64,000 nt of DNA from Clostridium sp. Its GTDB lineage: Bacteria; Bacillota; Clostridia; TANB77; CAG-508. Under the pieces are notes generated by a model, which was given only the letters and a program-made list of their open reading frames with translations, made no database searches and was not told the origin of the DNA. Location of the stretch: positions 219,478 to 283,477 of the forward strand of contig JAHAKD010000001.1 of the NCBI GenBank assembly GCA_018371855.1, read 5' to 3'. Within the stretch, counting starts at the first letter, position 1. Every line of letters starts with the position of its first letter. Made by a program: the position numbers and the translations under genes. Of the stretch, positions 2,723-56,725 are shown piece by piece.

Positions 2723-3673
2723 ATGGGTGTTTTTAGAGTAGAAAAAACAAAAAATTATACAGTAATGAGTAATTATCACTTTAGAGATAAAAGATTATCT
2801 TTTAAAGCGAAAGGAATATTATCTTTTATGTTATCCTTACCTGACGATTGGGATTATTCTGTTCAAGGATTAATTACTACAGCCAAAGATGGTAGAGATA
2901 GTGTGACTTCTGGTCTTAAAGAACTTGAACATTATGGGTATTTAAAAAGAGAACCGATTAGAGAAAAAGGAATAATAAAAGACTGGAATTATATTATTTT
3001 TGAACAACCAATTTGTGAAAGTACTGAAAATACTCATTTTGAACCAGATACGGAAAATCCGAAAGTGGATAGTGAACCAGATACGGAAAATCCAGATACG
3101 GAAAAACCACTTACGGAAAATCCGAAACAAATAAATACTAAAGATAATAAATATATAAATAATAATATATATATATCTTCAATTTCTAAAAAAAGCTCTT
3201 CTAAAGAAAATGAAAATATAGAAATTCATAACAATGAAGAGAAAAAAGAGAAAAAAGAGAAGAATGAAAAAATTGATAATGCTATTAATGAGTTTGAAGA
3301 AATTTGGAAGAATTACCCTAAAAAAGTCGGAAAAGCTAAGGCTAGAGAATTTTACATAGCTTGGACTGTTAAAGGTCGAAAACTTAAAACTAATAATTAC
3401 AGACTAAGGAAATTAACTAAAGAAGAAGTCGAGAAAGCTGTTAAAAACTATAATTTAGAAGTAATAAATAGAGAGTATCAATATATTAAAAATGCTGATA
3501 CATTCTTTAATACAGCAATTTTGGATTATATTACTTTAGAAAAACAAGATCCAATTAGCAAAAATACTCAAAGGACAAGTAGTACTTCAAAGAATACTTA
3601 TGGAAATTATAGTCAAAGAAAATATAGTAAATCAGATTTAAATAAACTGTATGCAAATAGCTGGCTAAAATAA
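2723..3673 (+). CDS. Replication-initiator-like winged-helix protein (HTH N-domain, DnaD/replisome-organizer-like C-domain)
   Basis: N-terminus KNYTVMSNYHFRDKRLSFKAKGILSFMLSLPDDWDYSVQGL is the motif of plasmid/phage/ICE Rep-type HTH proteins. The PDTENP repeat linker and the C-terminal FEEIWKNYPKKVGKAKA motif fit too. Confidence 0.6.
   Translation: MGVFRVEKTKNYTVMSNYHFRDKRLSFKAKGILSFMLSLPDDWDYSVQGLITTAKDGRDSVTSGLKELEHYGYLKREPIREKGIIKDWNYIIFEQPICESTENTHFEPDTENPKVDSEPDTENPDTEKPLTENPKQINTKDNKYINNNIYISSISKKSSSKENENIEIHNNEEKKEKKEKNEKIDNAINEFEEIWKNYPKKVGKAKAREFYIAWTVKGRKLKTNNYRLRKLTKEEVEKAVKNYNLEVINREYQYIKNADTFFNTAILDYITLEKQDPISKNTQRTSSTSKNTYGNYSQRKYSKSDLNKLYANSWLK
3044..3123 (+). repeat. Four direct repeats CCAGATACGGAAAA(T/A)CC inside the rep-like gene
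   Basis: Units at 3044-3060, 3077-3093, 3092-3108 and 3110-3123 (partial). Confidence 0.7.
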
Positions 3674-8903: not shown

Positions 8904-9125
8904 TTGGATAATATATTTATATTTATTCTAAGATTTAATATAGCAGTAACTTTAACATTACTTTTTGTAACAATATATTTTTATTTTAAAAGTATATTAA
9001 ATAAAGGATTTAAAACTAAAGTAATATCTAAAAGAAAAGCAAAGGATTGCTTATATGTAACAACTATATCAACAGTAATATTTTTTGTAATGCTTTTTGC
9101 GTTTGTATTATTTATAATGCCATAA
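8904..9125 (+). CDS. Small membrane protein
   Basis: TTG start 7 nt after GGAGGGAG. Two TM helices. Confidence 0.5.
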   Translation: MDNIFIFILRFNIAVTLTLLFVTIYFYFKSILNKGFKTKVISKRKAKDCLYVTTISTVIFFVMLFAFVLFIMP

Positions 9126-9314
9126 ATTTAGATACTATTTAATTAAATAACAGATGAGTGAAGAAAATGAAGAATAAAAAGACCAGTATAATAAAAAAGA
9201 TTATGAAAATTATATTTAAAACACTATTTTGTTGTATCATACTTAATATTTTAAATATATTTATTTAAAAATACATATTAAGATATTATCACTTATTTTT
9301 TTATTGTAGTTAAG

Positions 9315-9441
9315 TAGTAAACGCAGGATAAACGCACCGTGTCGTGCGTGGAAACAACTAGAGGGGCAAGCCCTCTACTATAATGTATAAACTTTAAATA
9401 TGCCGTGTATTTAATGCTTAAAATGTTTATAAGGGAACATT
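9315..9441 (+). repeat. Left copy of ~127-bp imperfect inverted repeat (oriT-like, two hairpins)
   Basis: AAACGCAGGATAAACGCACCGTGTCGTGCGT and CTAGAGGGGCAAGCCCTCTACTATAATGT are identical to the reverse complement of 13194-13321. Hairpins ACGCAC-N6-GTGCGT and TAGAGGG-N5-CCCTCTA. Confidence 0.8.
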
Positions 9442-9458
9442 CAAAGGAGGAAAAATTT

Positions 9459-11576
9459 ATGGGAAAAATTTTAATTATTGCAGAAAAAAATAGTATGGCT
9501 AGAGATATTGTTTCAGCTATAGGAGGTTGTTCTTACAACAAAAAAGAAAGCTATTACGAAAATAATAAGTATATTGTAATGAGCTTACTAGGACATGTTA
9601 TGACATTGTATGATATGGAAGATTATGATGAAAAGTTAAAAGCTTGGGATTTAGATTATTTACCATTCTTTCCACCAAAATGGAAATTAAAAGTAAAAAA
9701 AGAAGCTTATTTAAAACAAAAATACAATTTAGCTCAAAAACTAATAACATCTAAAGATGTAGATGAAATAATTAATGCAGGAGATCCAGATACAGAAGGA
9801 GAAGTCCTTGTAAATGAGGTAGTCTATTCGGTGTTTGAGGGTAAACATATACAAAAACCTGTAAAAAGAATTTGGATAAAAGACCATGTAGCAAGAACAA
9901 TTTTACAAGAATTAAAATATGCAAGAGATATAAAAAATACTAATAACGTATATCAAGAAGGATTAGCAAGAAGCCACATAGACTGGCTATATGGTATAAA
10001 TTTAACAAGATATGTTACTATAATGGCTAATGCTAATACAACATTTAACACGGGTAGAGTAATTATTCCAGCTGTTAAATATGTATATGATAGAGATTTA
10101 GAAATAGAAAATTTTAAGCCTAAAAAATACTATGTTGTAGTACCAACAATTACAAAAGATAATAAAGATATTAAACTGAATTTTAGTGATTTAAAATTTG
10201 ATACAAAAGAAGAAGCAGAAAGTAGCTTAGGAAGCTTAAAAAATGGAAAAATAAAAGTAGTAGAAATAGAAAAACAAGAAAAGAAAAAAGAGCCTAAAAA
10301 ACTATTTTCTCTATCTACATTACAAGTCTACATGTCAAAGAAATTTAAGTATAGTCCAGATGATACTTTAAATACAGTTCAAAAATTATACGAAGCAGGA
10401 TATTTAACATACCCAAGAACTAATTCAGAATACATGACAGAAGCAGAAATTACTAAAGCAGAAAATATTATAAAAGCATTAAATAATAAAGGATTTACAG
10501 ATGTAGAAATAAAAAAGACAAAGAAGATTTTTGATGACTCTAAAATTGATAGCCATAGTGCTATTACTCCTACAGAGAAAATAGCAGATTTAAATAATTT
10601 GTCTGGAAAAGAAAAAGAACTATATGAAGTTGTACGAAATCGATTTTTAGCAAACTTTGTTAAAGAAGAATGTAAATTAGATGTAACTAAAATAACTTTT
10701 GAATTTGGAAATTATAAATGTAATTTAACAGGAACAATAATAAAACAATTAGGATATTTAAAATATGAAAATGATTTAAATGAAAAGGATTTACCAAAAT
10801 TTGAAGAAGAAGAAATGTTTACCCCTAAACATTTAGATTTAGAAGAAAAAGTAACAACTCCTACTGGAAAAGTTACAGAAGCAGAATTAATACAATTCTT
10901 CAATAAGCCATTTAAAAATTTTGATAAAGAAGAAACAGAAGATGATGAATTAGATGATACAGAAGATTATAAGAAATTATTAAAAGGTATTGAAATTGGT
11001 ACAGAAGCAACTAGAGCTTCTACAATAAAAAAAATAATAGATATTTATTATATTTCAAAAGATAAAAATGGAAAATTATCAATTACAGATAAAGGAAGAG
11101 CTTTTATAGAGATACTTAAAAAATTGAATATTAATTTATGGAAAGAAAAAACTGTAGAATTATCTCAAAAACTAAAAGAAGTACATAATTCAAAAACAAC
11201 TGTAGATGAAGTAGAAAAAGAAGCAAAAGATGAAATTAAAAATATTATAAATCAAAAAGTAGAAAATGTAGCAGTTTCTAATTTAAATATAAATAATTCC
11301 AATAATAAAAATACTAACAAAGAAATTGGAATATGTCCTTTATGTGGTAAAAATGTTATTGCTTTAAAAGGAAAATATGGAACTTTTTATAAATGTTCTA
11401 ATTGTGATTTTAAAATTAGTGGTAAAATAGCAGGGAAAACAATTACGCAATCAATCGTTAAAGAATTATTAAAAAATGGAGAAACAAAAAATATAGATGG
11501 ATTCATCTCCAAAAATGGTAAAGAGTTTGCAGGTAAACTTTGTTTAAATAATAATAAAATTGAATTTAAATTTTAA
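9459..11576 (+). CDS. topB: Type IA DNA topoisomerase (Topo III-like) with C-terminal zinc ribbon
   Basis: TOPRIM motifs ILIIAEKNSMARDI and DPDTEGE. Active-site region GYLTYPRTNSEY. CPLCGKNV...CSNCDF. Start ATG 9459 lies 8 nt after AAGGAGGA. Confidence 0.85.
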   Translation: MGKILIIAEKNSMARDIVSAIGGCSYNKKESYYENNKYIVMSLLGHVMTLYDMEDYDEKLKAWDLDYLPFFPPKWKLKVKKEAYLKQKYNLAQKLITSKDVDEIINAGDPDTEGEVLVNEVVYSVFEGKHIQKPVKRIWIKDHVARTILQELKYARDIKNTNNVYQEGLARSHIDWLYGINLTRYVTIMANANTTFNTGRVIIPAVKYVYDRDLEIENFKPKKYYVVVPTITKDNKDIKLNFSDLKFDTKEEAESSLGSLKNGKIKVVEIEKQEKKKEPKKLFSLSTLQVYMSKKFKYSPDDTLNTVQKLYEAGYLTYPRTNSEYMTEAEITKAENIIKALNNKGFTDVEIKKTKKIFDDSKIDSHSAITPTEKIADLNNLSGKEKELYEVVRNRFLANFVKEECKLDVTKITFEFGNYKCNLTGTIIKQLGYLKYENDLNEKDLPKFEEEEMFTPKHLDLEEKVTTPTGKVTEAELIQFFNKPFKNFDKEETEDDELDDTEDYKKLLKGIEIGTEATRASTIKKIIDIYYISKDKNGKLSITDKGRAFIEILKKLNINLWKEKTVELSQKLKEVHNSKTTVDEVEKEAKDEIKNIINQKVENVAVSNLNINNSNNKNTNKEIGICPLCGKNVIALKGKYGTFYKCSNCDFKISGKIAGKTITQSIVKELLKNGETKNIDGFISKNGKEFAGKLCLNNNKIEFKF

Positions 11577-19145: not shown

Positions 19146-19628
19146 ATGGATAGTATTAAAGAAAATATGATTGTTGCTAAATCTTTTGTTAATTCATTAA
19201 AAAACAAAGAGGATTTTGTTATTGATAATTTCTTTAAAAAACATAATTTAAGTTTAGAATTAAAAGAAGAACTGAAAGAACAATTAAATGATATAAATAT
19301 TTTACAGGAAACAAAGACTTTCAAAATATATCAAATAGCATTAATAAATAAATTACAAGAATATTTTTTTAAGACAACTTTTATTGGAGATACTTTAAAT
19401 AAAGTAGATGGATTCTTATGTGATTTAAATAATAAAAAAGTACTTTCTTTAACCAATATTGAAGCAAAATATACTTTTAAATATTTAACAGATTCTTTAA
19501 ATAAAGAAGAAAAAATAATAGAAAAAGAAACTCTATATAATGAAGAAGTTGCAAATGCAAAATTTAATTATTTTTTTGATTTACAAAAAAATAACTCTAA
19601 AGATAATGAGGAGGAAGATGAACTATGA
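19146..19628 (+). CDS. Acidic-tail protein (C-terminus NEEEDEL), function unknown
   Basis: 160-aa ORF. Its stop overlaps the next ATG (CTATGA). Confidence 0.6.
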   Translation: MDSIKENMIVAKSFVNSLKNKEDFVIDNFFKKHNLSLELKEELKEQLNDINILQETKTFKIYQIALINKLQEYFFKTTFIGDTLNKVDGFLCDLNNKKVLSLTNIEAKYTFKYLTDSLNKEEKIIEKETLYNEEVANAKFNYFFDLQKNNSKDNEEEDEL

Positions 19629-19897
19629 GTAATATTACTTTAGACAAAAAAATGAAAAATAGGCTAGAAGATACTTATGAAAAAATGCGAATATAAATTG
19701 AAACTTTAAAAAATACATGGAACTCTATTCCTAGTCAAATTCGAGAACAGTTAAATGCTTAATTTAATGAAGATTATACTCCAGATTATTGTATTAGATG
19801 GCTCGAAACATCAATTGATGATTTATATAGAAATTCAGATGAAGTATTTGAAGATTTAAAAAATGAATTAGAAAATGAAGATGAAAATGACCTCTAA
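19625..19897 (+). pseudogene. Decayed acidic-tail gene with two in-frame TAA stops (C-terminus ENEDENDL)
   Basis: A single 90-codon frame from the coupled ATG to TAA at 19895, interrupted by TAA at 19694-19696 and 19760-19762. Confidence 0.55.
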
Positions 19898-19957: not shown

Positions 19958-19986
19958 TTGATTTTTAAATGGATTTGTGCTATATT
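19958..19986 (+). promoter_or_regulatory. Sigma-A-type promoter for the antitoxin RNA/toxin operon
   Basis: TTGATT-17 nt-TATATT with a TG-extended -10 (TGTGCTATATT). Confidence 0.55.
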
Positions 19987-19996
19987 AAATATAGTA

Positions 19997-20101
19997 ATAA
20001 ATGGTATGTCGCAACCTATGCTTGCGACTAATAAATGGGCTAGTGAATAAATGGTATGTCGCAACCTATGCTTGCGACTGATAAATGGGCTAGTGAATAA
20101 A
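19997..20101 (+). ncRNA. Type III antitoxin RNA: 2.1 tandem copies of a 50-nt repeat
   Basis: Period is exactly 50 nt (20001 vs 20051) with one mismatch (20031 A vs 20081 G). Each unit holds the hairpin GTCGCAA-N7-TTGCGAC. It lies between a promoter and a terminator, directly upstream of a ToxN-like gene. Confidence 0.7.
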
Positions 20102-20110
20102 TAGTTTTTT

Positions 20111-20139
20111 AGGAGATTCTTTTTAGACCAGAATCTCCT
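20111..20139 (+). terminator. Hairpin/attenuator between the antitoxin repeats and the toxin gene
   Basis: AGGAGATTCT-N9-AGAATCTCCT. A terminator in this position is typical of toxI-toxN operons. Confidence 0.55.
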
Positions 20140-20160
20140 TAATTAATTTAGGAGGAAATA

Positions 20161-20928
20161 ATGAATATACAACAAGGATATTTTTATTTCATTTCAGATT
20201 TATATTTTGATAGAGTACAAGATAAAGAATTGTTACAAAATAAAGAAAGTGGAACCAAAAGACCAGCTTATTATTGTTTCAAAGATAGTAATAATAATAG
20301 AATCTTTTGGTTTGTTCCTATTTCTAGTAGAGTTGAAAAATATAAAAAAATATATAATCATAAAATACAAAAACAAAAGAATAAAGGAATAAAAAAGCCA
20401 AAAGTTGATACTATCGTTTTTGGTAAAATTTCTGGAAAAGAAAATGTATTTTTAATACAAAACATGTTTCCTGTAATTGATAAATATATTATTGATACTT
20501 TTCTTAGAAAAAATGCTTTAGTTTCAATAGATGATAAAACAAAAAAAGAGATAAACCTAAAAGCTAATACAGTATTATCTTTAGTAAACAAAGGTATTAA
20601 AAGTATGGTATTTCCAGATATATTAAAATTGAAAGGAATTATGAAAGATGAAATTTTAAAACAACTTGAAATTGAAGATATATTTAACAATAAAAAACTT
20701 ACATTTATAGATGAATTTAAAAACATTATTAGTAATGCAATTAATAAAGAAGATATATCTTTATACCTACAATACATAAAAGATTCCAATATATTATCAG
20801 AATATACTAATATTTTAAATTCTAGTGATGATATTACTAAAATAAAAACAGACATAATATTAAAAACAGACGAATTGTTTAATGTAGAAGAAAACTCTGA
20901 CGAAGAAACAAATGAAGATGAAGTTTAA
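20161..20928 (+). CDS. toxN: Type III toxin (ToxN/AbiQ/TenpN-superfamily endoRNase-like) with ~85-aa C-terminal extension ending in the acidic tail TNEDEV
   Basis: FYFISDLYFDRVQDKELLQNKESGTKRPAYYCF...WFVPISSRVEKYKKIY resembles the ToxN/AbiQ/TenpN N-terminal pattern. The repeat-terminator-toxin architecture also fits. Confidence 0.65.
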   Translation: MNIQQGYFYFISDLYFDRVQDKELLQNKESGTKRPAYYCFKDSNNNRIFWFVPISSRVEKYKKIYNHKIQKQKNKGIKKPKVDTIVFGKISGKENVFLIQNMFPVIDKYIIDTFLRKNALVSIDDKTKKEINLKANTVLSLVNKGIKSMVFPDILKLKGIMKDEILKQLEIEDIFNNKKLTFIDEFKNIISNAINKEDISLYLQYIKDSNILSEYTNILNSSDDITKIKTDIILKTDELFNVEENSDEETNEDEV

Positions 20929-20964
20929 AGTTATTATTCTTAAATATCCCCTTTTAATATAGAT

Positions 20965-21011
20965 AAGCCATTAAAATAGTAGTTAAGCTATTTTAATGGC
21001 TTTATTTTTTT
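20965..21011 (+). terminator. Rho-independent terminator
   Basis: AAGCCATTAAAATAG-N8-CTATTTTAATGGCTT followed by a T-run. Confidence 0.7.
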
Positions 21012-21140: not shown

Positions 21141-23711
21141 ATGGGAAACAAAAAATTTAGAACGAAACTTACAATGACTATTATTTCTACTATACTTGCT
21201 TCTGTTTTATCAGTAATAATCGCATATTGCTTGATGGAAATATTCCTAAGAACACCATTAAATTTATTAAATTTTAATATTGGTAATATGTTTAAAACGA
21301 TATTTGGAAATCAAGATGGAATCCAAATGTTTATAATTATCTTACTTGCGTTTATGATTTTAATATTATCTACGGCATTTAAGTTGTTTAAATTAAACGA
21401 TTATAAATCTAAACTCTATGAAGTAACACCAGATATAAAAATACCATATCCAGTAAAAAATCAAACACAATTTGGTTCGTCATGGTGGCTTACTAAAAAA
21501 CAGATAGATAATCAAAAAGAATTGTATAAAAATACATTTGATCCAGAAAATCCAACAATTCATAAACTTATGAAAATGTCTGAAACTCAAAGAAAAGATG
21601 AAGAAAAATTAATGAAAGAAATTGATGAAGGAAAGCCTGTTCCAAAACTTTCTACCGATAATTTAGAGCCAAAAAATCCAAATTTTGAAACTAAAATATT
21701 TAAAAAAGGTGGACTTGTTGTAGGAAAAAAGGATAGAACTGTTGTAAATTTTGTAAAACAATTTCCTTTTATAAAAACTAGAAAAGTAGAAGATATTTAT
21801 TATATTGGAGATGATATGCACAGTTTAACTGTTGGGGCAACACGTTCAGGAAAAACAAGAAATTTAGTTTTAGAAACAATAGCAAATACAGGTTTAGCTG
21901 GTGAAAGTATGATTTTATCAGATCCAAAAGGAGAGCTATTTGAATATACATCTGGTATGCTTAGAGAATTAGGCTATAATGTTGTAACATTAGATTTTAA
22001 AAATCCACTTAAAAGTTCAAAATATAATTTCTTGCAACCTGTTATTGATATGATTGATAAAAATGATATTCCAAAAGCAGTTTCTTACTGTTCTGATATT
22101 GTAAAATCTTTAGTTGGTGAAAAAGGTAATCAAGAAGCTATATGGTACAATGGAGAACAAGCCGTTGAAAAATGTGGAATTATGGCAGTTGTAATGGAAA
22201 ATTCTGATAGAGTAAATGACCAAAAAATTTGGACTTTATTTAAAGAAAAAATTTGTGAAGATTATCAAAAATATTTAAATTCTCCAGAAGCTAAAAAATT
22301 AAATGAATATGGAGAAGAACTAGAAGCAGACACTATTGAAGAATTTAGAAAGAGAAAGTATGAAGATTATAAAAAAGACTATTATAGATTATCTAAAGAA
22401 GAAAGAAAAAATATAAAATATAAATATTTTGAAAATGCTAAAGAGAAGATATTAAACTATATTATTGAAAATAATACTAATTCTGAAAATTTAGACTTTT
22501 TATTAACAGCAAAAGATTTTAATACTGAATTAAATAAAGCTATCAATGAAAATTATGAAGAGTTACAAAATAAATTTAAAGAATTAAATGAAGATAGTTC
22601 TAATGAATTTTTAGAAGTTGTTTCTAATTGGAAAAACTTATTAGACTTAGAGCCACACCCAGAACTTCAAAATCTGAGAAATGTTTATGAATTTATTGCA
22701 AGAATGTGTGTTGAGCAATCTGATAAAACAATGCTAATTGATACATTCTTAGATAAATTACCACAAGATCACCCAGCAGTAACACAATTTCAAAGTGCAA
22801 AAATTGCACCTTCTAAAACAAGAGGCTCATTCTTTACAAGTGCATTAGCAACACTTTCAATATTTACAGATCCATATATTGCTGATATGCTTGCAAAAAG
22901 TGATATAGATGTAACTTCATTTAACACTCAAAAAACAGCCCTATACATGATTTTGCCTGATGAAAAAACAACCTTTTATGGTTTATGTTCGCTATTCGTA
23001 AATCAATGCTACACGAAACTTTGCGAAGTTGCAGACGCACAAGGTGGAAGATTAAATAATAGGGTAAACTTTATACTAGATGAGTTTGGTAACTTTAGTG
23101 CTATTAATAATTTTGGTGGATTCTTAACCGTTGGTGGTGGTAGAGGAATACGTTTTAATTTGTTTTTACAGTCATTTTCACAATTAAATGACAAGTACGG
23201 AGATAAAGTTGCACCAAATATTTTGGATAACTGTCATGTCTGGACTTATCTTAAAACTTCTAATGCAGATACAGCCAAGAAAATTAGTGAAAAATTAGGA
23301 ACATATACAACTTCAACATGGTCAGAAAGCAATTCCTCTAGTGGAGGAGCAGTAAACGAATCTAAATCTCACAATTTAAGTAAAAGAGAACTTTTAACAC
23401 CAGATGAGGTTTTAAGAGTCCAAAGACCATATTTACTTACAATGATTTCTGGAATTAATCCTTGTATGACTTATGCTCCAGACCTTTCTAAATGGTATTT
23501 TAATAAAGTATTAGGATTAGGAGATCCAGCATGGAATACAAAAATTAGACAGATTAGAGAAGATGAAAGACCAGAAAGAAGTGTGTCACAAGCACTTTTA
23601 TGGGATATTGATAGAAAAATGAAAAAAGAAAAGGAGAAAGAAGAAGAAAACAAAAGAAGAGAAAAAGAATTAAATTGGAAAAGACAATTAATAAATAGCA
23701 ATTTTAATTAA
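21141..23711 (+). CDS. virD4: Type IV coupling protein (VirD4/TraG family) with enlarged K/E-rich insertion
   Basis: N-terminal TM helices. Walker A GATRSGKTR. Walker B VNFILDEFGN. ATG 21141 after AAGGAGGAAAAGAGAAA. Confidence 0.85.
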   Translation: MGNKKFRTKLTMTIISTILASVLSVIIAYCLMEIFLRTPLNLLNFNIGNMFKTIFGNQDGIQMFIIILLAFMILILSTAFKLFKLNDYKSKLYEVTPDIKIPYPVKNQTQFGSSWWLTKKQIDNQKELYKNTFDPENPTIHKLMKMSETQRKDEEKLMKEIDEGKPVPKLSTDNLEPKNPNFETKIFKKGGLVVGKKDRTVVNFVKQFPFIKTRKVEDIYYIGDDMHSLTVGATRSGKTRNLVLETIANTGLAGESMILSDPKGELFEYTSGMLRELGYNVVTLDFKNPLKSSKYNFLQPVIDMIDKNDIPKAVSYCSDIVKSLVGEKGNQEAIWYNGEQAVEKCGIMAVVMENSDRVNDQKIWTLFKEKICEDYQKYLNSPEAKKLNEYGEELEADTIEEFRKRKYEDYKKDYYRLSKEERKNIKYKYFENAKEKILNYIIENNTNSENLDFLLTAKDFNTELNKAINENYEELQNKFKELNEDSSNEFLEVVSNWKNLLDLEPHPELQNLRNVYEFIARMCVEQSDKTMLIDTFLDKLPQDHPAVTQFQSAKIAPSKTRGSFFTSALATLSIFTDPYIADMLAKSDIDVTSFNTQKTALYMILPDEKTTFYGLCSLFVNQCYTKLCEVADAQGGRLNNRVNFILDEFGNFSAINNFGGFLTVGGGRGIRFNLFLQSFSQLNDKYGDKVAPNILDNCHVWTYLKTSNADTAKKISEKLGTYTTSTWSESNSSSGGAVNESKSHNLSKRELLTPDEVLRVQRPYLLTMISGINPCMTYAPDLSKWYFNKVLGLGDPAWNTKIRQIREDERPERSVSQALLWDIDRKMKKEKEKEEENKRREKELNWKRQLINSNFN

Positions 23712-25075: not shown

Positions 25076-25417
25076 ATGGCATTTTTAATTGGATTATTAA
25101 TTTCAACTGTATTAGGTTTAATTATTAGAGAATGTTTAGGCTTTGTTGTAACATTACTTAATAATTTCTTTTACGACGCATTTGCCGTTGAAACTAACTT
25201 CTATGATATGGTAAATACAGGAGTATTTAATATAAATACTCTATATCATGCGATATATATATTTGCTATTTCTATACTTATTATGTTATTTGTAAAAAAG
25301 ATGATTGAAACCTATTTTGCATGGAGCAATGGTGATCCAGAAAATAATCCATTAAATGTTTTAATACGGATTTGTGGAAGCTTTAATAATCATGATAAGT
25401 TTTGGATTTCTGTATGA
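25076..25417 (+). CDS. Polytopic membrane protein, VirB6/TrbL-like candidate, N-terminal part
   Basis: RBS GGAGGA and TM helices. The frame ends inside the overlap with 25374-25931. Confidence 0.45.
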   Translation: MAFLIGLLISTVLGLIIRECLGFVVTLLNNFFYDAFAVETNFYDMVNTGVFNINTLYHAIYIFAISILIMLFVKKMIETYFAWSNGDPENNPLNVLIRICGSFNNHDKFWISV

Positions 25418-25931
25418 AACTTTTGTAAATATTTTATATAGTTTCTATACTTCTATTACAACAGCAGGATTTGGCTCAGCTTCTGATTTACAGTCTATGT
25501 TAGGAACATTTACGGTGAGTACAGCTTTAATAAATTCAATAGGATTATTTATATATGCAATAATAGCATTTCAATTTGTTTTAATTTACTTCCAAAATTT
25601 AAGTAGAGGTATTGAAATATTAATTTTAAGATTTGGTATTCCATTTGCATGTATTGGACTTTTAAATGCGGATAAAGGAGTATTTAGAGGATATATTCAA
25701 CAATTTGTTAAAGTTTCTTTTACTGTAATAGTTCAACTTACGTTATTAAGATTAGCAATCACTCTATTAGTAAATGGAAATGGAATATTAGCTTTAGCAA
25801 CTTCATCACTTGCTATGAAAACGCCAGGATTATTATCTCAATTCTTAACAACTTATGGTGGAACAGATGGAAAAGCTGGAAAAATAGTACATAATGTGGG
25901 AATCGTTGCAGGTATGATGAAAAAACATTAA
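25374..25931 (+). CDS. Polytopic membrane protein, VirB6/TrbL-like candidate, C-terminal part
   Basis: Lies in the +1 frame relative to 25076-25417, open from 25365. GTG start with no RBS. Four or five TM helices. Confidence 0.45.
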   Translation: MEALIIMISFGFLYETFVNILYSFYTSITTAGFGSASDLQSMLGTFTVSTALINSIGLFIYAIIAFQFVLIYFQNLSRGIEILILRFGIPFACIGLLNADKGVFRGYIQQFVKVSFTVIVQLTLLRLAITLLVNGNGILALATSSLAMKTPGLLSQFLTTYGGTDGKAGKIVHNVGIVAGMMKKH

Positions 25932-26648: not shown

Positions 26649-27503
26649 ATGAACCAAAATACTTATATCAATGTAAAAATGACAAAACAAGAAGCAATAA
26701 AATATTATGCAAATAAAATAGTCGAAGATTCAATTGAAGATTGTATGGAATTAAATTATTGCATGACAAATGAATATTATGAAGATAATGGATTTGTAAA
26801 AGAAAATCAAGATGAAATATTAGAAGAAATTAAAAAAGATGAAAGAATAGCAGATGTATATTTAAACAAATCAAGTAAGCCATATACCTTTGATATGGTA
26901 TTTTGGTCTGACTATTGTCCTGGATATTATGAAGATTATACAATGTCAAGGTTTATTCAAAATGATATAATAAAAGACTTCATAGATCAATTAATAAAAA
27001 TAAAAGATAATAGCATTTTCATACATAATACAACTACACAAAACATTATAAATAAATTACTAACAGCAAATAACTTCATCGTTTCATTATCAGAAGAAGA
27101 AAAAGAAGGTGCTAATAATATGTTAAAAGAATTTATTTGTGGCACAGGATTTTTTTATAAATATTTAGATAAAGACAAAGTTGTTGTAAATAAGGAAAAT
27201 ATAGCAGAATTAATAACAGAATTACAAGAAAAATATTACCAATTAGAGATATATAAAGATAGTAAACATATAAAAGATATATCATCAGAAGATATAGATG
27301 AAATGTTGAAAATATATGAAAAAGACAAGATTTATCCTGAAAAATATATTGGGTTATTTATATGTAAAGATGATAAAACAAAAACTTATTTAGCAATAGA
27401 TAACAGAAATGGAGATATGTATATAGAAGAATTTAAAACAGAAAAAGAATGTATGGATTATTTATTAGGAGAAGAAGATCAAGAGGAGGAAGATGAACTA
27501 TGA
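26649..27503 (+). CDS. Acidic-tail protein (QEEEDEL) with YxAIDNxxG module
   Basis: 284 aa. Contains GLFICKDDKTKTYLAIDNRNGDMYIEEF, a module shared with 53537-54208 and 57819-58754. Confidence 0.65.
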   Translation: MNQNTYINVKMTKQEAIKYYANKIVEDSIEDCMELNYCMTNEYYEDNGFVKENQDEILEEIKKDERIADVYLNKSSKPYTFDMVFWSDYCPGYYEDYTMSRFIQNDIIKDFIDQLIKIKDNSIFIHNTTTQNIINKLLTANNFIVSLSEEEKEGANNMLKEFICGTGFFYKYLDKDKVVVNKENIAELITELQEKYYQLEIYKDSKHIKDISSEDIDEMLKIYEKDKIYPEKYIGLFICKDDKTKTYLAIDNRNGDMYIEEFKTEKECMDYLLGEEDQEEEDEL

Positions 27504-28567
27504 TAATTAGAAACAAAGAAACAAAGGAATATATTCCTGTAAAAAATAAATATGGATATTCTAGTTTAGATTTTCAAACTGCTTTTCTTTATATGAGTAG
27601 ACTTCCAGAAAAAGAAAGAAATACTTTAGAAATATATGATAGGGAGCAAAATAAGATAATAGAACCTAAAAAATATGTATCAAATGATAGATATTTACTT
27701 TTCTTAGATAGTAAAGGAATTAATTTAGAAGATTATGCTATGGGAAAAGTTGAATTTAATACTAATGTTGAATATATGGAATTTATCGATAATCTCTCTC
27801 TAAAATTTGAAAATGATATAGGAAAACCTGTTTTATCTAATCAAGATGAATTTACAGATTATATGAAATATAAAGTATTAGGTGCTATTGCATTTAATGA
27901 AGCTTTAAATAATTTAGGAGTGGGAATCATAACTTCATCACCACAGATGAGTTATATGCTAGATAAATATAATATTTCGGAAGAAACAAATTTATCTTTA
28001 TACAAAAGAATTTCTGATAAATGGGAACAAGGTCAAAAATTAAGAATAGTTAGTAATTATAAAGAAGAAGTATTAGACAAAATTCCAACAAAATATTTAG
28101 ATAAATATTTAAAAGTTCTACCCAATGAAAAAGCAGATTCACATGAATTGTATAGAGATATTTCTAAGTATAAAAGAATTGTAGAAAATATTGATAAAAT
28201 AGAAGATAAAAAAGAGCCTGTTAAATTTTTAATTAATTATTCTGAAAATAGGGAATTAAGAAAAGATGATGTTTTAAATTTTAAAGAAATGGAAAGTAAA
28301 ACATACTTGGCAACATTAGAAGTAAAAGCAAGAAATAATGAAGATTCAAAGAAATATGGAGAAGAATTTCATACTTACGACAAAGTAGATTTTACAATAA
28401 TTTTAGATGATAGAAAAGATTTTAAAATTTATTTAGATAACAGAGAAGATATTGGCGATTATCAAAGTTTTAAATCATTTATGAAAAATACTTACATAGA
28501 TGAATTTAATAATAAAATAACTAAAATGTTAAATGAAGCAGAAGAAAGTGAGGAAGAATCTATTTAA
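27500..28567 (+). CDS. Acidic-tail protein (EAEESEEESI), function unknown
   Basis: 355 aa with ATGA-coupled start. The last 10 aa are identical to those of 35236-35688. Confidence 0.65.
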   Translation: MIIRNKETKEYIPVKNKYGYSSLDFQTAFLYMSRLPEKERNTLEIYDREQNKIIEPKKYVSNDRYLLFLDSKGINLEDYAMGKVEFNTNVEYMEFIDNLSLKFENDIGKPVLSNQDEFTDYMKYKVLGAIAFNEALNNLGVGIITSSPQMSYMLDKYNISEETNLSLYKRISDKWEQGQKLRIVSNYKEEVLDKIPTKYLDKYLKVLPNEKADSHELYRDISKYKRIVENIDKIEDKKEPVKFLINYSENRELRKDDVLNFKEMESKTYLATLEVKARNNEDSKKYGEEFHTYDKVDFTIILDDRKDFKIYLDNREDIGDYQSFKSFMKNTYIDEFNNKITKMLNEAEESEEESI

Positions 28568-35235: not shown

Positions 35236-35688
35236 ATGAGTGAAACATATCAAGAGATGAAAAAAAGACAAGAAGAAGAATTAACAAAAATTCCAAAAAA
35301 GTTTGCTTTTACAGATGAACAATTTAAACAAGGAATGAAAGAATTGGGCTTAAATGAAAATGATACAGATAAAATTGTAGGTATTGGAGCAGGTGGCTTC
35401 ATGAAAAAAACAGATGTAGAAGATTATAAAGGATTGCAAAAAAAACATTTTAAAGAATTTTGGAAAGAAATTGTTAATGATAAAGTTGGAGATAAGTTTA
35501 TAAAAGATATGTTTTTATATGAATTAAATAATCACGAATATGGTTATACGAATGATATTACAGATACACTAATGAGTTTAGGATTAAGTGATAAAGATAT
35601 TAGAGAAAATGAAAACTTAAGAACAGGCTTAATACTAGCAGAAAAGGAAATATTAGAGGCAGAAGAAAGCGAAGAAGAATCTATTTAA
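35236..35688 (+). CDS. Acidic-tail protein (EAEESEEESI); conserved small protein type found on conjugative elements
   Basis: 150 aa with RBS AGAGGGA. Contains FAFTDEQFKQGMKELGL...FLYELNNHEYGYT. Confidence 0.65.
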   Translation: MSETYQEMKKRQEEELTKIPKKFAFTDEQFKQGMKELGLNENDTDKIVGIGAGGFMKKTDVEDYKGLQKKHFKEFWKEIVNDKVGDKFIKDMFLYELNNHEYGYTNDITDTLMSLGLSDKDIRENENLRTGLILAEKEILEAEESEEESI

Positions 35689-35709: not shown

Positions 35710-35857
35710 GTATTTTAATTGATTTAGAAAATTATTTTAAAAATAGAGAAGTAGAAGTATCTGAAATGAAACTTTAGAAGAAGCAGAAAAAATGCTATAT
35801 AAACATAAACAAAATTTTTTAAAAAATGGAACAGAAAAATACAAGGAGGAAACTAAT

Positions 35858-36517
35858 ATGGATAAATTAAATATAAAAGTAGAATTAAAAAAAATAAACA
35901 AGGAAGATTCAAACTTAAAAGGATTTGCTGATATAACGTTAGCAGGAGTTACAATAAAAGATGTTGCAGTAAAAGAAATTCCTACAAAAGAAGGAACAAT
36001 AGTAGCTTTTGATACACCTAATATTGATAAATACCAAGATAAAGAAGGAAATATGAAATACATAAAAAGTGTAAGCATAAATACTAAAAAGGATAACTTA
36101 ATACCAGAGATAAGAAAAGCTTTATTAGAAGCCTTAACATCAAACGAAACTAATGAATATGGAAAGACAGTTATAAATCATGAAACAAATATTGAATATG
36201 ATAAAGATTATGTGAAATCTTATATTAGACCATTATCTTTTGAAAATAATCCTTATATAAAAGCAACTGGTAGAATACTAGTAGGTGGTGTTTTAGCATT
36301 AAATAATGTACGATTAAATGAAGGCGTTTCAAAGGAAGGTAATGAATTTCAATCAATTTCTGTTCCAGAAAAAAAGATTGATCAAGAATATAAACCTTTA
36401 GTATATCTTGATAAAGATTTAAGAGATAAAATAAAAGATAATTTAGTTTCAGAATATAATAAAGAAACTAAGGAACAAGAAGCAAATAATGAAGAAGCAG
36501 AAGAAGATGAGATTTAA
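35858..36517 (+). CDS. SpoVG-like N-terminal domain protein with extension and acidic tail (EAEEDEI)
   Basis: ATG 35858 after AAGGAGGAAACTAAT. LNIKVELKKINKEDSNLKGFADITLAGVTIKDVAVKE is SpoVG-fold-like. Confidence 0.5.
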   Translation: MDKLNIKVELKKINKEDSNLKGFADITLAGVTIKDVAVKEIPTKEGTIVAFDTPNIDKYQDKEGNMKYIKSVSINTKKDNLIPEIRKALLEALTSNETNEYGKTVINHETNIEYDKDYVKSYIRPLSFENNPYIKATGRILVGGVLALNNVRLNEGVSKEGNEFQSISVPEKKIDQEYKPLVYLDKDLRDKIKDNLVSEYNKETKEQEANNEEAEEDEI

Positions 36518-55691: not shown

Positions 55692-56725
55692 TTTTATATG
55701 GAAAAATCATTGATGAACCACGATACGACCAAGTAGAAGAAACCAATGAAACTTATTTTTACATAACTGTAGAGGATTTAAAACAAAATAAACAAAAAGT
55801 AGTTCTTTCTTATAATGTTAGTAATGATTATGAAATATATCAAATAGGTAAAAACATCAAAGCAGAAATTAAAATAGCAGAAGATATAAATTTAAATATA
55901 GCAACTAAAATTAATTTTATTACAAAACAAGAATTAATAGATAAGGCTCTAAATGAATACAGGAAAGGTAATATCTCTTTAGATAATTATATAAATGTAT
56001 GTAAAAGAAATTTACAAAATGATAATACTAAAGAACAAAAGAATTTATATAAACAAGATATTAAAAGATATAATATTTTAAGTTTTAAAGATAAAGAAAT
56101 TATAGAAAATCTTACAGAAGATGAAATTTATAGAAAAATTGAATCTTACTTAAAAGAATCTTTACAACTTGCTGATATTGATACTGATATAATTGGTATT
56201 CAACTTGTCGGATCAAGAACTAAAGGGATAAATAAATCAATTTCAGATTTAGATGTACTAGTAGAATATAATAACTCTGAAATTCACGAAGATGACCTTT
56301 TTAACTATTTAAATGATGAAGATGATAGATTATATATCAATGGAGTGAAAGTTGATTTTAATCCAATTAATGAAGAAAGGTCAGGGTATAATATAAAATC
56401 ATGGCTAAAAGAAAATTATAACTACGATAAAAATTTAGATGAAAAAGGAAATATAGTACATAACAATATGGAGGAAACTCAAAAGAAAGTAGAAACAATA
56501 TATGAAAAAGTAATTACTGATGGGCTAAAAGATACATTGTCTGGAAACTATGTAATAGATTTAAATAAGCTTAAATTAAATTCTAAGGAAGAAAATTTGT
56601 TTATTAATATGTTAAATAGTGATAATAGAATAAACGACCTAGAAATTAATCCTAAAACGAAAGAAATAGATATAATTTTCTACTTAGATTATTGCCCTAA
56701 CGTAGAAGATGAGGAGGAAATCTAA
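55688..56725 (+). CDS. Nucleotidyltransferase-fold protein (MNT/Pol-beta-like) with acidic tail (EDEEEI)
   Basis: LVGSRTKGINKSISDLDVLV is the GS-x9-DxD NTase signature. Confidence 0.55.
   Translation: MILYGKIIDEPRYDQVEETNETYFYITVEDLKQNKQKVVLSYNVSNDYEIYQIGKNIKAEIKIAEDINLNIATKINFITKQELIDKALNEYRKGNISLDNYINVCKRNLQNDNTKEQKNLYKQDIKRYNILSFKDKEIIENLTEDEIYRKIESYLKESLQLADIDTDIIGIQLVGSRTKGINKSISDLDVLVEYNNSEIHEDDLFNYLNDEDDRLYINGVKVDFNPINEERSGYNIKSWLKENYNYDKNLDEKGNIVHNNMEETQKKVETIYEKVITDGLKDTLSGNYVIDLNKLKLNSKEENLFINMLNSDNRINDLEINPKTKEIDIIFYLDYCPNVEDEEEI

Follow-up and report, generated by a model that had tools for sequence, protein, structure and literature searches.

The locus appears from its sequence to be a genuine CptIN-family type III toxin-antitoxin module carried by a Gram-positive conjugative element, and its toxin ends in an acidic tail that it has in common with 16 other proteins of that element. 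The common tail suggests that the toxin may be delivered to the machinery of DNA transfer. In the reading that we favor, from sequence and from analogy with known systems, the CptIN operon is borne on an integrative and conjugative element (ICE), and the acidic tail would recruit CptN to the type IV secretion system (T4SS) for co-transfer into mating recipients; we consider this proposal evenly poised between right and wrong.

The element resides in a low-GC gut Clostridium that resembles Clostridium sp. CAG:354, and the window is the whole 64,000-nucleotide stretch of its DNA that we analyzed. As the initial annotation had proposed, the module sits inside the transfer region: cptIN lies between a sortase gene (upstream) and a T4SS coupling-protein (T4CP) gene (directly downstream). 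Beyond the latter are genes for TrbL-like, T4SS pilin, VirB4-like, and M23 peptidase proteins, and the coupling-protein gene is syntenic in loci L001-L003. The features of the locus are as follows.

19958-19986, plus strand: putative sigma-A/70-type promoter of the cptIN operon (promoter scan: TTGATT, 17 nt, TGcTATATT, with extended -10)
19992-20102, plus strand: cptI antitoxin RNA gene (Tandem Repeats Finder: period 50, 2.2 copies, 96% matches)
20112-20138, plus strand: terminator-like attenuating hairpin, 3′ of the repeats and 5′ of the toxin gene (GGAGAUUCU, 9-nt loop, AGAAUCUCC, then UUAAUUAAUUU)
20150-20155, plus strand: ribosome-binding site AGGAGG, 5 nt 5′ of the ATG, read from the sequence
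20161-20928, plus strand: cptN ORF, 255 aa, C-terminal end ...EENSDEETNEDEV
20161-20622, plus strand: cptN toxin core, predicted endoribonuclease domain, aa 1-154 (NCBIfam, PDB 4rmo_A, AF2)
20620-20889, plus strand: C-terminal helical extension, aa ~154-243 (AF2 and homology to P0004 and P0012)
20890-20925, plus strand: disordered acidic C-terminal tail, aa 244-255, FNVEENSDEETNEDEV region (pLDDT and PSSM)
20965-21002, no single strand: bidirectional intrinsic terminator at the end of the cptIN operon, ahead of the gene for the coupling protein (terminator scan: 16-bp stem, then TATTTTTTTG)
21141-23711, plus strand: T4SS coupling protein (VirD4/TraG-like), candidate receptor of the tag (Pfam T4SS-DNA_transf, E 5e-60; TraG-D_C; TrwB_AAD_bind)

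Every layout element proposed in the initial annotation was found where it had been placed, in the canonical arrangement of a type III (RNA antitoxin) system. The promoter, TTGATT-17-TATATT, was recovered at 19958-19986 with a TG extension in addition. Promoter-like sites in this 24% GC DNA occur at the chance level (promoter scan: 15 found and 14.2 expected); four other loci (L001, L004, L007, and L012) have a strong promoter at the equivalent position, directly 5′ of the first repeat, which in three of the four is TTGACA-17/18-TATAAT. The cptI array is on the same strand as cptN, 58 nt 5′ of its ATG. The 50-nt period stood, and the count of 2.1 copies was corrected to 2.2: two full units, after which part of a third copy supplies the presumed cleavage site again. 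Unit boundaries were placed from the 3′-terminal GA, as in E. rectale CptI (CptI_Er), for which cleavage is after A45 (PMC4627078). The processed units would be 19997-20046 and 20047-20096, each AUAAAUGG...CUAGUGA. The hairpin seen in each copy also held, as GTCGCAA, 7 nt, and TTGCGAC fold as a 7-bp stem. Between the repeats and the toxin gene, the expected terminator hairpin is a stable structure at 20112-20138 (GGAGATTCT/AGAATCTCC; ΔG -12.6 kcal/mol, z = -3.5) that also forms when the leader is folded to its MFE. A simple terminator scan did not call it, because its U-tract, UUAAUUAAUUU, is imperfect. L001 and L004 have hairpins of different sequence at the equivalent position.

The toxin matched the NCBIfam equivalog model for CptIN (NF047359) at 168.2 bits (cut-off 90, E 1e-49), with the match spanning residues 6-159 and profile positions 1-148 of 150. 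A phmmer search linked it to PDB 4rmo_A (E 2.2e-26), and PHROG 33519 also recognized it. The AF2 model was confident overall (pLDDT 89.7, pTM 0.84; core residues 1-154 at about 90), and 4rmo_A was again the top PDB match when the model was searched with Foldseek (TM 0.85, target-normalized; rmsd 2.6 Å). Pfam returned no family for the toxin at E ≤ 10, including PF13958 (ToxN_toxin), in a search sensitive enough to detect the ToxN neighbor in L004 (E 5e-37), and a PADLOC scan gave no match. CptIN was the sole NCBIfam match, a result that bears on TenpN only so far as the library holds a dedicated TenpN model. Membership in the ToxIN, AbiQ, or TenpIN families was rejected on the strength of the NCBIfam CptIN and PDB 4RMO matches and the lack of ToxN_toxin (Pfam) and PADLOC matches. 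The initial annotation had called the N-terminal ~170 residues ToxN/AbiQ/TenpN-like. That they form a type III toxin was upheld; the family is instead CptN and the domain about 155-160 residues long, and among the profiles proposed as a check, CptIN (NCBIfam) matched, ToxN_toxin (Pfam) did not, and NCBIfam, so far as it has a TenpN model, gave no match to TenpN.

The RNase active site of CptN is a Ser-Ser/Thr-Arg triad (PMC4627078). By alignment, the triad maps to the stretch P-I-S55-S56-R57 of our toxin, which aligns with P-L-S-S-R of the E. rectale enzyme (CptN_Er), and S55 is invariant among 19 homologues. That CptN is an endoribonuclease is strongly supported by its homology with CptIN of E. 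rectale. A protein search in plasmids found eight plasmid-borne CptN homologues, none of the eight covering the C-terminal extension; a DNA search in plasmids and a protein search in phages found nothing.

The closest characterized relative is CptIN of Eubacterium rectale (PDB 4RMO; Rao et al., 2015, PMC4627078), a member of the family defined by Blower et al., 2012 (PMC3401426), whose census gave repeats of 40-48 nt in 1.9-3.4 copies. The two systems agree in toxin sequence family, fold, and PxSSR active-site stretch; in the order of promoter, about two tandem repeats, terminator, and toxin; and in a repeat unit with an A-rich linker (AUAAAUGG), a 3′-terminal GA, and covarying pseudoknot stems. 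They differ in several respects. The window toxin has 255 residues rather than 155-162, the excess being the helical domain and acidic tail, and its repeat is 50 nt rather than 45 nt. The residues that specify adenine in E. rectale, D81 and S85, are S and N in the window, and Y104 is F. The window locus, unlike that of E. rectale, lies within a conjugative element and adjoins a T4CP gene. Many CptN relatives in the present set have repeats of 48-52 nt.

With ToxIN/AbiQ (PF13958), the window module shares the type III logic and the genetic layout, and the folds are distantly related (Kid/MazF-like matches). The ToxN-family toxins of two related elements, L004 and L174, likewise have acidic C-terminal tails. 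In contrast, the window toxin has no PF13958 or PADLOC match. ToxI repeats are 33-36 nt, and the ToxIN complex is heterohexameric rather than heterotetrameric (PMC4627078).

Tested at the level of the family, the CptI repeat RNA is predicted by covariation to fold as an H-type pseudoknot. The window unit aligns with CptI of E. rectale and 24 other family units. Across the 26 distinct units, pseudoknot stems S1 and S2 covary: 83% of cells are paired, versus 37-45% with slid partners; nine of the 11 pairs change on both sides, and none of 500 shuffles reaches the observed pairing value. Family-level pairing is 94.6% for S1 and 73.7% for S2. The evidence for RNA structure comes from covariation and not from energy, since the MFE of a single 50-nt unit was no better than that of shuffles (z = -0.3). 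In the window unit, S1 is clear (7 bp) and S2 fits two registers, CCUAU/AUGGG as in E. rectale or CUA/UAG as in most relatives; family-wide, the E. rectale-type register is paired in 41.5% of cells versus 73.7% for the 3′-proximal register. Pseudoknot folding of the unit, raised by the initial annotation, is accordingly borne out by the family, with an energy signal at background and an ambiguous S2 register in the window unit itself. An Rfam search with the repeat found no matching family, all matches being far under the gathering scores.

The toxin continues beyond its catalytic core into helices (residues 154-248, pLDDT above 90 in AF2), and pLDDT falls below 50 for residues 244-255, which are not docked onto the core. 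An extension of ~85 residues had been proposed to carry the tag of the element. The length of 255 residues and the C-terminal tag were both confirmed; the tag itself is confined to the final ~12 residues, which are disordered. The helical domain (aa ~154-243) is a trait of one CptN subfamily and is not specific to conjugative elements: it is collinear and homologous in P0004 (E 3e-16) and in chromosomal P0012 (E 2e-4), and extended homologues that lack the acidic tail are chromosomal, among housekeeping genes, with no T4SS nearby. Pfam found no domain in residues 160-255, and a search of 1.84 billion representatives with the extension (residues 155-255) retrieved only fragments of the same protein.

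The tail behaves as one instance of an element-wide motif. The toxin end ...SDEETNEDEV fits the tag EE-x-EEDE-[LIV], and tags of this type end 17 of the 76 ORFs in the window versus one of 1312 background ORFs, taken from equally AT-rich relatives; the idea that the tail is a compositional accident was rejected on this count. That the toxin carries the tag was also confirmed with a PSSM made from the tails of the other 16 tagged proteins. The CptN tail scored 12.8 bits, the other 16 tails 13.1-25.6 in leave-one-out scoring with one outlier, the best untagged ORF in the window -2.7, and the best background ORF 2.3, so that none of the 1312 reached 12.8. The CptN tail is the weakest of the set, with N at position -5 and a terminal V. 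Tails in sister elements read SDEESNEDEV, FDEESEEDEL, and SSEEENEDEI, and a CptN variant of 95% identity ends in the perfect consensus EESEEDEL. The other tagged cargo in the window includes an LPD25 polyvalent-protein domain, DUF7659, a HipA-like kinase, and a nucleotidyltransferase. These counts, together with the retention of the motif through different, synonymous codons, indicate a genuine tag that works as protein sequence.

Two further origins of the tail were considered and set aside. The resemblance of -EDEL ends to a KDEL-type signal for endoplasmic reticulum (ER) retrieval, which has K or H at position -4, fails in that this position is acidic here, the last residue of many tails is I or V, and the organism is a gut Clostridium. 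It is barely credible that the tail is a by-product of nucleotide constraints, with GAG GAA GAT GAA CTA TGA serving as a Shine-Dalgarno (SD) sequence plus overlapping ATG for the next gene, or of a Glu/Asp/Asn-rich composition in 24% GC DNA: seven of the 17 tagged genes do overlap the following gene by ATGA, in an eighth 3 nt separate the stop from the next start, and GAG occupies an SD-like position in 8/8 coupled tails versus 2/8 uncoupled ones, but in nine tagged genes, cptN among them, no start follows the stop within 10 nt (in seven of the nine the next one is 78-290 nt away), the amino-acid motif survives synonymous codon changes, and such tails are as rare in the AT-rich background as given above. 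For cptN, a Shine-Dalgarno/overlap cassette is largely refuted, as the next start lies 213 nt away, past the terminator, and the tail has no GGAG or GAGG.

The tail is not present in chromosomal CptN homologues. Among 128 distinct CptN proteins surveyed for a T4CP gene within 10 kb, five, from two lineages, had both acidic tail and T4CP and 121 had neither; one had an acidic tail on a 3.6-kb contig, and one had no tail and lay beside a truncated T4CP. In this set, nearly every acid-tailed CptN is encoded beside a T4SS coupling protein, and CptN subfamily copies on conjugative elements have acquired a disordered acidic tail of ~12 residues. An extended CptN in L018 that ends NKEED, beside a truncated T4CP gene, a DnaJ gene, and a D-Ala-D-Ala ligase gene, was ambiguous and is left out of the support.

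Two other element types have independently acid-tailed type III toxins. In L004, CptN-400 and ToxN-262 have in common a C-terminal module of 102 aa (65% identity) and each end in NNDEEEDER, and in L174, ToxN-188 ends SEEDEDEPEM. In both, acidic tails were confined to the toxins within the 20 kb seen, and the tail there may belong to toxins in particular and not mark cargo in general. A search with the 102-aa module alone retrieved only two fragments, and in the AF2 model of ToxN-262 the module was too poor (pLDDT 46-62) for a fold search. Neither this module nor the window extension is a widespread domain. In all, the association of tail with conjugation rests on only two to four independent lineages.

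A model that accommodates these observations begins with a single promoter that would drive the 2.2-copy array of 50-nt cptI repeats, with a leaky terminator hairpin that would let a minority of transcripts run on into cptN. CptN would cleave the transcript of the repeats just past the GA that ends each unit, and the 50-nt pseudoknot units would hold it inactive in a closed protein-RNA complex. The acidic tail would be the recruitment signal for the T4SS of the element, acting through the coupling protein or an adaptor, and CptN would be co-transferred into recipients during mating. In the recipient, CptN would be neutralized once the incoming element transcribes cptI and not before. The outcome would be addiction in advance or a transient shut-down of RNA in the recipient. 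Export poses a difficulty, as substrates of T4SSs are believed to be transported in an unfolded state and CptN would first have to be released from its tight complex with RNA.

Export of a toxin by a T4SS is plausible by the precedent of the type II toxin VbhT. VbhT/VbhA is a FicTA system of Bartonella plasmid pVbh, BID-fused FicT and PezT toxins occur on conjugative plasmids, and VbhT transfer has been shown experimentally (Harms et al., 2017, PMC5675462). As with VbhT, the toxin gene is embedded in a conjugative T4SS/Dtr locus, and the C-terminal addition has no counterpart in chromosomal relatives, the window tail being found only in T4CP-linked copies and on one short contig. As with the BID-fused toxins, different families of toxin gained such an addition more than once, each independently. 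VbhT-type systems are type II, with a protein antitoxin, in Alphaproteobacteria, and use as their signal a positively charged tail together with a folded BID domain; the window system, in contrast, has an RNA antitoxin and a short, acidic, disordered tail in a Gram-positive Clostridium.

The tail matches no characterized signal of type IVA (conjugation-type) T4SSs, namely BID domains, XVIPCD domains, or positively charged tails. Its sole counterpart among T4SS signals is a Glu-rich motif of Legionella, from a type IVB system in which DotM of the coupling complex binds Glu-rich effector tails (Meir et al., 2018, PMC5802825). Like the window tag, the E-block of Dot/Icm effectors is a Glu-rich C-terminal tail on many otherwise unrelated proteins; Dot/Icm belongs to type IVB and serves a Gram-negative pathogen in targeting eukaryotic cells, and the window motif, EE-x-EEDE-[LIV] at the extreme C terminus, is much sharper. 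The antibacterial X-Tfe effectors of Xanthomonas and Stenotrophomonas (PMC8740702, PMC6759196) are also toxic proteins with a modular C-terminal VirD4-targeting domain, XVIPCD, for delivery into other bacteria, and the 102-aa module of CptN-400 and ToxN-262 is conceptually similar to it. XVIPCD is a folded domain of ~120 aa in Gram-negative bacteria, immunity there is by protein and not RNA, and no sequence relationship to the window system is evident. The literature surveyed, with incomplete coverage, held no account of acidic tails or export of type III toxins, nor of an acidic T4SS signal in Gram-positive bacteria. Tagging had been held to be new for ToxIN-type systems. That stands insofar as we found no published acidic-tailed type III toxin; the concept is not new, as type II toxins with T4SS signals have been described (PMC5675462).

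A competing explanation, possible but in our judgment rather unlikely, is that cptIN is an ordinary ICE stability (post-segregational killing) or abortive-infection (Abi) module whose tail acts in the donor only, by docking at a common hub, control of turnover, or localization at the transfer apparatus. Type III systems are classic Abi modules, and CptIN of E. rectale stabilizes plasmids in E. coli (PMC4627078). Pfam found no known T4SS signal domain, and the module is intact, with its own promoter and terminators, next to damaged transfer genes, as expected when an addiction module outlives its element. However, a purely stabilizing or Abi role leaves unexplained the repeated gain of tails by type III toxins of conjugative elements, set against the 121 other CptN loci, and the C-terminal module common to two unrelated toxins. 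A degron on the toxin, moreover, would undermine post-segregational killing, which requires a stable toxin. As to the damage, in the window copy a VirB6/TrbL-like gene is frameshifted and a small tagged gene has two nonsense codons; sister elements of the L014/L095 type have an intact TrbL gene. Given these lesions, the T4SS of this copy may not work at all.

It is much less probable, and in our view very doubtful, that the tail regulates the toxin in cis, as a polyanionic RNA mimic in the basic RNA-binding groove that serves as a built-in partial antitoxin or tunes CptI exchange. The tail combines disorder with high acidity, electropositive surfaces are what CptN uses to bind RNA (PMC4627078), and in the regions seen of L004 and L174, acidic tails are on toxins only. 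Against this, 16 window proteins unrelated to RNases carry the motif, including its terminal hydrophobic residue, and AF2 places no tail on the core.

Returning to recruitment of CptN by the T4SS, a broader version of that proposal can be offered only tentatively, and we think it improbable as it stands: CptN and ToxN toxins may repeatedly have been turned into cargo of Gram-positive conjugative T4SSs by an added acidic C-terminal signal, either a bare tail of ~12 aa or a module of ~100 aa ending in one, and would enter the recipient without their RNA antitoxin, which would be unable to accompany them; recipient survival would then require that the element be established and cptI transcribed, a form of pre-emptive addiction or anti-defense.

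Several results hold even without export. An "uncharacterised protein" is re-annotated as CptN, an extended CptN subfamily is defined, and the set of CptI pseudoknot sequences with covariation is enlarged. If the tail is a T4SS recruitment signal, it would be the first sequence-defined protein-export signal of a Gram-positive conjugation machine, with about 17 candidate substrates in one element. If the proposal is true, toxin-antitoxin toxins delivered by conjugation would extend from type II systems and BID domains in Alphaproteobacteria to systems with RNA antitoxins, and an exportable toxin whose antidote is made solely from the transferred DNA would enforce establishment of the element or punish recipients that destroy it.

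By sequence and predicted fold, the window toxin is a CptN and not, as the initial annotation had proposed, a ToxN/AbiQ/TenpN-like protein. Pfam and PADLOC searches with the toxin gave no match. The NCBIfam equivalog model of the CptIN family toxin matched residues 6-159 with 168 bits (cut-off 90), and the sole match in a phmmer search of PDB sequences was Eubacterium rectale CptN (CptN_Er; 4RMO, E 2e-26). An AlphaFold2 model built from 19 homologues was confident (pLDDT 89.7, pTM 0.84); its best PDB match was 4rmo_A (TM 0.85, rmsd 2.6 Å), followed by MazF/Kid/CcdB folds. The stretch PISSR aligns to PLSSR of CptN_Er, consistent with the Ser-Ser-Arg triad reported there (PMC4627078). At the positions through which CptN_Er recognises the scissile adenine (D81, S85 and Y104), the window toxin has S, N and F, a divergence expected where an enzyme co-evolves with its own RNA.

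The layout of promoter, repeats, hairpin and toxin gene recognized earlier is present in full within 19958-21002:

19958-19986, + strand: promoter-like site TTGATT-17-TGcTATATT (promoter scan)
19992-20102, + strand: tandem repeat, period 50, 2.2 copies, 96% matches
20112-20138, + strand: hairpin GGAGAUUCU-9 nt-AGAAUCUCC, dG -12.6 kcal/mol, z = -3.5
+ strand: ribosome-binding site AGGAGG, with the ATG 5 nt further on (sequence read)
20161-20928, + strand: toxin ORF cptN, 255 codons
20965-21002: strong bidirectional terminator (terminator scan)

An A/U-rich stretch lies directly 3′ of the hairpin. Since the 24% GC window contains about as many promoter-like hexamer pairs as chance predicts (15 versus 14.2), the promoter call rests on position. 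A promoter also lies directly 5′ of the first repeat in four other family loci, three of which have a near-consensus TTGACA-17/18-TATAAT.

From about 60 loci we took the repeats lying 5′ of the CptN gene, phased the units on their 3′-terminal GA and placed 25 distinct ones in an alignment with the crystallised E. rectale CptI RNA. E. rectale CptN cuts after A45 of ...GUUGA (PMC4627078). The window unit, AUAAAUGGUAUGUCGCAACCUAUGCUUGCGACUAAUAAAUGGGCUAGUGA, aligns end to end with the family, A-rich linker (AUAAAUGG) and terminal GA included. Although the folding energy of the single sequence was uninformative (z = -0.3), covariation across the family supports folding as a two-stem pseudoknot: 83% of cells were paired, versus 37-45% with partners slid by 1-3 columns, 9 of the 11 pairs had changes on both sides, and none of 500 shuffles reached the observed values. 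Stem 1 of the window unit is the 7-bp hairpin GUCGCAA/UUGCGAC, which in L004, a comparison locus, becomes CUUGCAA/UUGCAAG through two compensatory changes. Stem 2 has two possible registers in the window, CCUAU/AUGGG (that of the E. rectale structure) or CUA/UAG beside the 3′ end; across the family, 73.7% of the 3′-end register is paired versus 41.5% of the E. rectale register. Rfam held no model for the repeat. The array comprises two full units bounded by three presumed cleavage sites, a copy number that matches the family norm of about 2 (PMC3401426). From its alignment, the window repeat is a CptI-type RNA.

The window locus is very likely a CptIN module that works like the E. rectale paradigm. 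The RNase would process the repeat transcript, whose pseudoknot units would then trap it, while the antitoxin:toxin ratio would be set by the terminator between repeats and toxin. CptIN as a family and type III toxin-antitoxin loci on mobile elements are already known. A 2012 census found cptIN on chromosomes only (PMC3401426); we found CptN homologues, all annotated as hypothetical, on 8 PLSDB plasmids (Clostridium perfringens, Megamonas, Oscillibacter, Fusobacterium and others).

Most CptN proteins have 156-168 aa. The C-terminal extension of about 85 aa, initially described as a tagged add-on, has two parts, and only the last 12 residues carry the acidic tag. The remainder is a collinear helical extension common to a CptN subfamily of 239-400 aa, including untagged relatives; it matches two homologues, P0004 (E 3e-16) and P0012 (E 2e-4), and was modeled with high confidence as a bundle of helices (residues 154-248, pLDDT above 90). 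Searched alone against 1.84 billion representative proteins, the extension retrieved only fragments of itself. Several members of the extended subfamily (P0011, P0012, P0014 and those of L015-L017) end right after the helices and are surrounded by housekeeping genes (DNA polymerase III delta, MurB, hydrogenase, DXP synthase), with no coupling-protein (T4CP) gene within 10 kb and no acid-tailed neighbor gene products; the helical extension itself is therefore unconnected with conjugation. On the L016 contig, the gene for an untagged 243-aa CptN with the extension is present in two identical copies separated by about 6 kb (2850-3581 and 8976-9707). The stretch 244-255 of the window toxin is distinct from the helical extension: the model shows it as disordered (pLDDT below 50), and it is strongly acidic and found only in element-borne copies.

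The window represents a conjugative element of Gram-positive type, encoding a topoisomerase, ParB, sortase, TrbL/VirB6-like protein, T4SS pilin, VirB4-like ATPase, M23 peptidase and LPXTG surface proteins, with a VirD4/TraG-like coupling-protein gene directly downstream of cptIN; proteins identical to the window's are assigned to Clostridium sp. CAG:354. The TrbL/VirB6-like gene, an intact 290-aa ORF in L001, L014 and L094-L097, is split in the window by a frameshift near residue 102 (ORFs 25076-25417 and 25374-25931, + strand), so this copy may be transfer-defective or the assembly may contain an indel error. Across all the loci retrieved there were 128 distinct CptN proteins, of which five, from two lineages, had both an acidic tail and a T4CP gene within 10 kb, and 121 had neither. 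One had the tail with no T4CP gene seen, on a 3.6-kb contig too short to judge, and one untailed protein lay near a truncated T4CP. In L011, whose contig is too short to reveal a nearby T4SS, the gene upstream (L011:341-1321) of an acid-tailed 387-aa CptN (P0007) gave a weak HipA_C-like match (E 9e-4), an echo of the tagged HipA-like kinase of the window.

We defined the tag as at least 5 Asp/Glu among the last 8 residues plus a terminal L, I or V. It was present on 17 of the 76 window ORFs, all on the + strand between 19146 and 58754, with the consensus EE-[STAG]-EEDE-[LI] (EE-x-EEDE-[LIV] including terminal V), and such tails occurred in only 1 of 1312 ORFs taken from chromosomal loci in relatives that are just as AT-rich. 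The tagged proteins are otherwise unrelated and most have no known domain; those with one include:

27500-28567, + strand: LPD25 polyvalent-protein domain protein
35236-35688, + strand: DUF7659 protein, whose Pfam model stops exactly at the tail start
35792-36517, + strand: SpoVG-like protein
50237-51169, + strand: HipA_C-like kinase
55688-56725, + strand: nucleotidyltransferase (NTP_transf_2)

Scored on a PSSM of the other 16 tails, the CptN tail SDEETNEDEV reached 12.8 bits, just under their leave-one-out range (13.1-25.6), versus maxima of -2.7 for untagged window ORFs and 2.3 for background ORFs. Sister copies of the element have SDEESNEDEV and SSEEENEDEI, and one 95%-identical CptN ends FDEESEEDEL, a perfect consensus. 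The toxin thus carries the tag of the putative effectors, as first noted, and on these scores its tail is a true instance of the element-wide tag. A 90-codon frame at 19625-19897 (+ strand), homologous to an intact 89-aa ORF of sister elements (L001:9242-9511, L014), ends in tag-like ...ENEDENDL; in-frame stops (TAA) at 19694 and 19760, each in place of a CAA (Gln) in the relatives, probably make it a pseudogene in this copy.

Seven tagged genes end ...GAG GAA GAT GAA CTA TGA, with ATGA as a stop/start overlap with the next gene (for example 19611-19628, 27486-27503 and 54191-54208, + strand). Here GAGGA doubles as the Shine-Dalgarno sequence of the next gene, whose ATG is contained in the Leu and stop codons. 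An eighth gene is followed by the next start 3 nt past its stop and has GAG codons at the same SD-like position, so that GAG is found there in 8/8 coupled versus 2/8 uncoupled tails. For the other nine tagged genes, no start follows within 10 nt of the stop; in seven of them, including cptN, the next one is 78-290 nt away. Because these nine keep the amino-acid motif with mostly GAA codons, the tag is taken to be under selection as protein, with the translational-coupling cassette as a secondary use.

Acid-tailed type III toxins also occur in other elements. L004, which contains VirB4, M23 peptidase, sortase, RNA ligase and T4CP, carries tandem cptIN and toxIN loci (L004:9847-12546), the former with a 49-nt repeat (2.2 copies) and a 400-aa toxin, the latter with 34-nt repeat arrays (11362-11553) and a 262-aa PF13958 toxin. 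Although these toxins are unrelated, they share 65% identity over their last 102 residues, and both terminate in IINRPPxSLNNDEEEDER; a third toxin, the ToxN P0125, has the same module. L174, an integrase-topoisomerase-ParB element with SpaA-type surface proteins, encodes a toxIN (L174:9841-10567; 33-nt repeat, 3.2 copies) whose 188-aa ToxN ends NTSEEDEDEPEM, a further independent case on an ICE-like element. As no acidic tails besides the toxins' were visible within 20 kb in L004 and L174, the tail could be toxin-specific there and not a general cargo mark. The 197-aa ToxN of L177 (1354-11676), flanked by a relaxase on one side and on the other by a T4CP/MobL block that includes an AcrVA2-like gene, has an extension of about 35 aa of mixed or basic character (...KINESRQSIHDKEKELIN); therefore, not all type III toxins near T4SS genes are acid-tailed. 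Our literature search, of incomplete coverage, found no description of an extended CptN subfamily, of type III toxins with acidic tails or with a C-terminal module in common, or of an acidic C-terminal tag common to many Gram-positive conjugative-element proteins.

The tail may best be read as recruiting proteins to the T4SS for co-transfer into recipients, with the full export model a tentative proposal that falls short of probable. For it speak the presence of the tail on many unrelated element proteins, its repeated gain by type III toxins in conjugative elements and the shuffling of C-terminal modules between toxin families. For type II systems, toxins are already known as conjugative T4SS substrates: the conjugative Vbh T4SS secretes VbhT, a FicT toxin encoded on plasmid pVbh that carries a fused BID signal, and BID-type signals were gained several times by FicT and PezT toxins (PMC5675462). 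In Legionella, DotM of the coupling complex binds Glu-rich tails, a precedent for an acidic T4SS signal (PMC5802825). Against export, the window tail is unlike any characterised signal of conjugation-type T4SS. T4SS substrates are presumed to pass through in an unfolded state, so CptN would need stripping from its RNA. This copy is also damaged, and the frameshifted TrbL-like gene and the two CAA-to-TAA changes in the small tagged gene mean that it may be transfer-dead. A role of the tail in the donor only is about as likely as export or somewhat less so, and an in-cis RNA mimic is improbable. That the tail is a nucleotide-level by-product is less probable still: the GAGGA/ATGA cassette couples the next gene in seven tagged genes, but nine without a nearby downstream start keep the motif.

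Since CptIN_Er stabilised plasmids in E. coli without conferring phage resistance (PMC4627078), element maintenance would by analogy be the default role of the module. Under the export model, the RNA antidote could not be co-exported as protein and would have to come from transcription of the incoming DNA, so that delivered toxin would be costly to recipients where establishment of the element fails. The interest of the finding hinges on this putative function of the tail.
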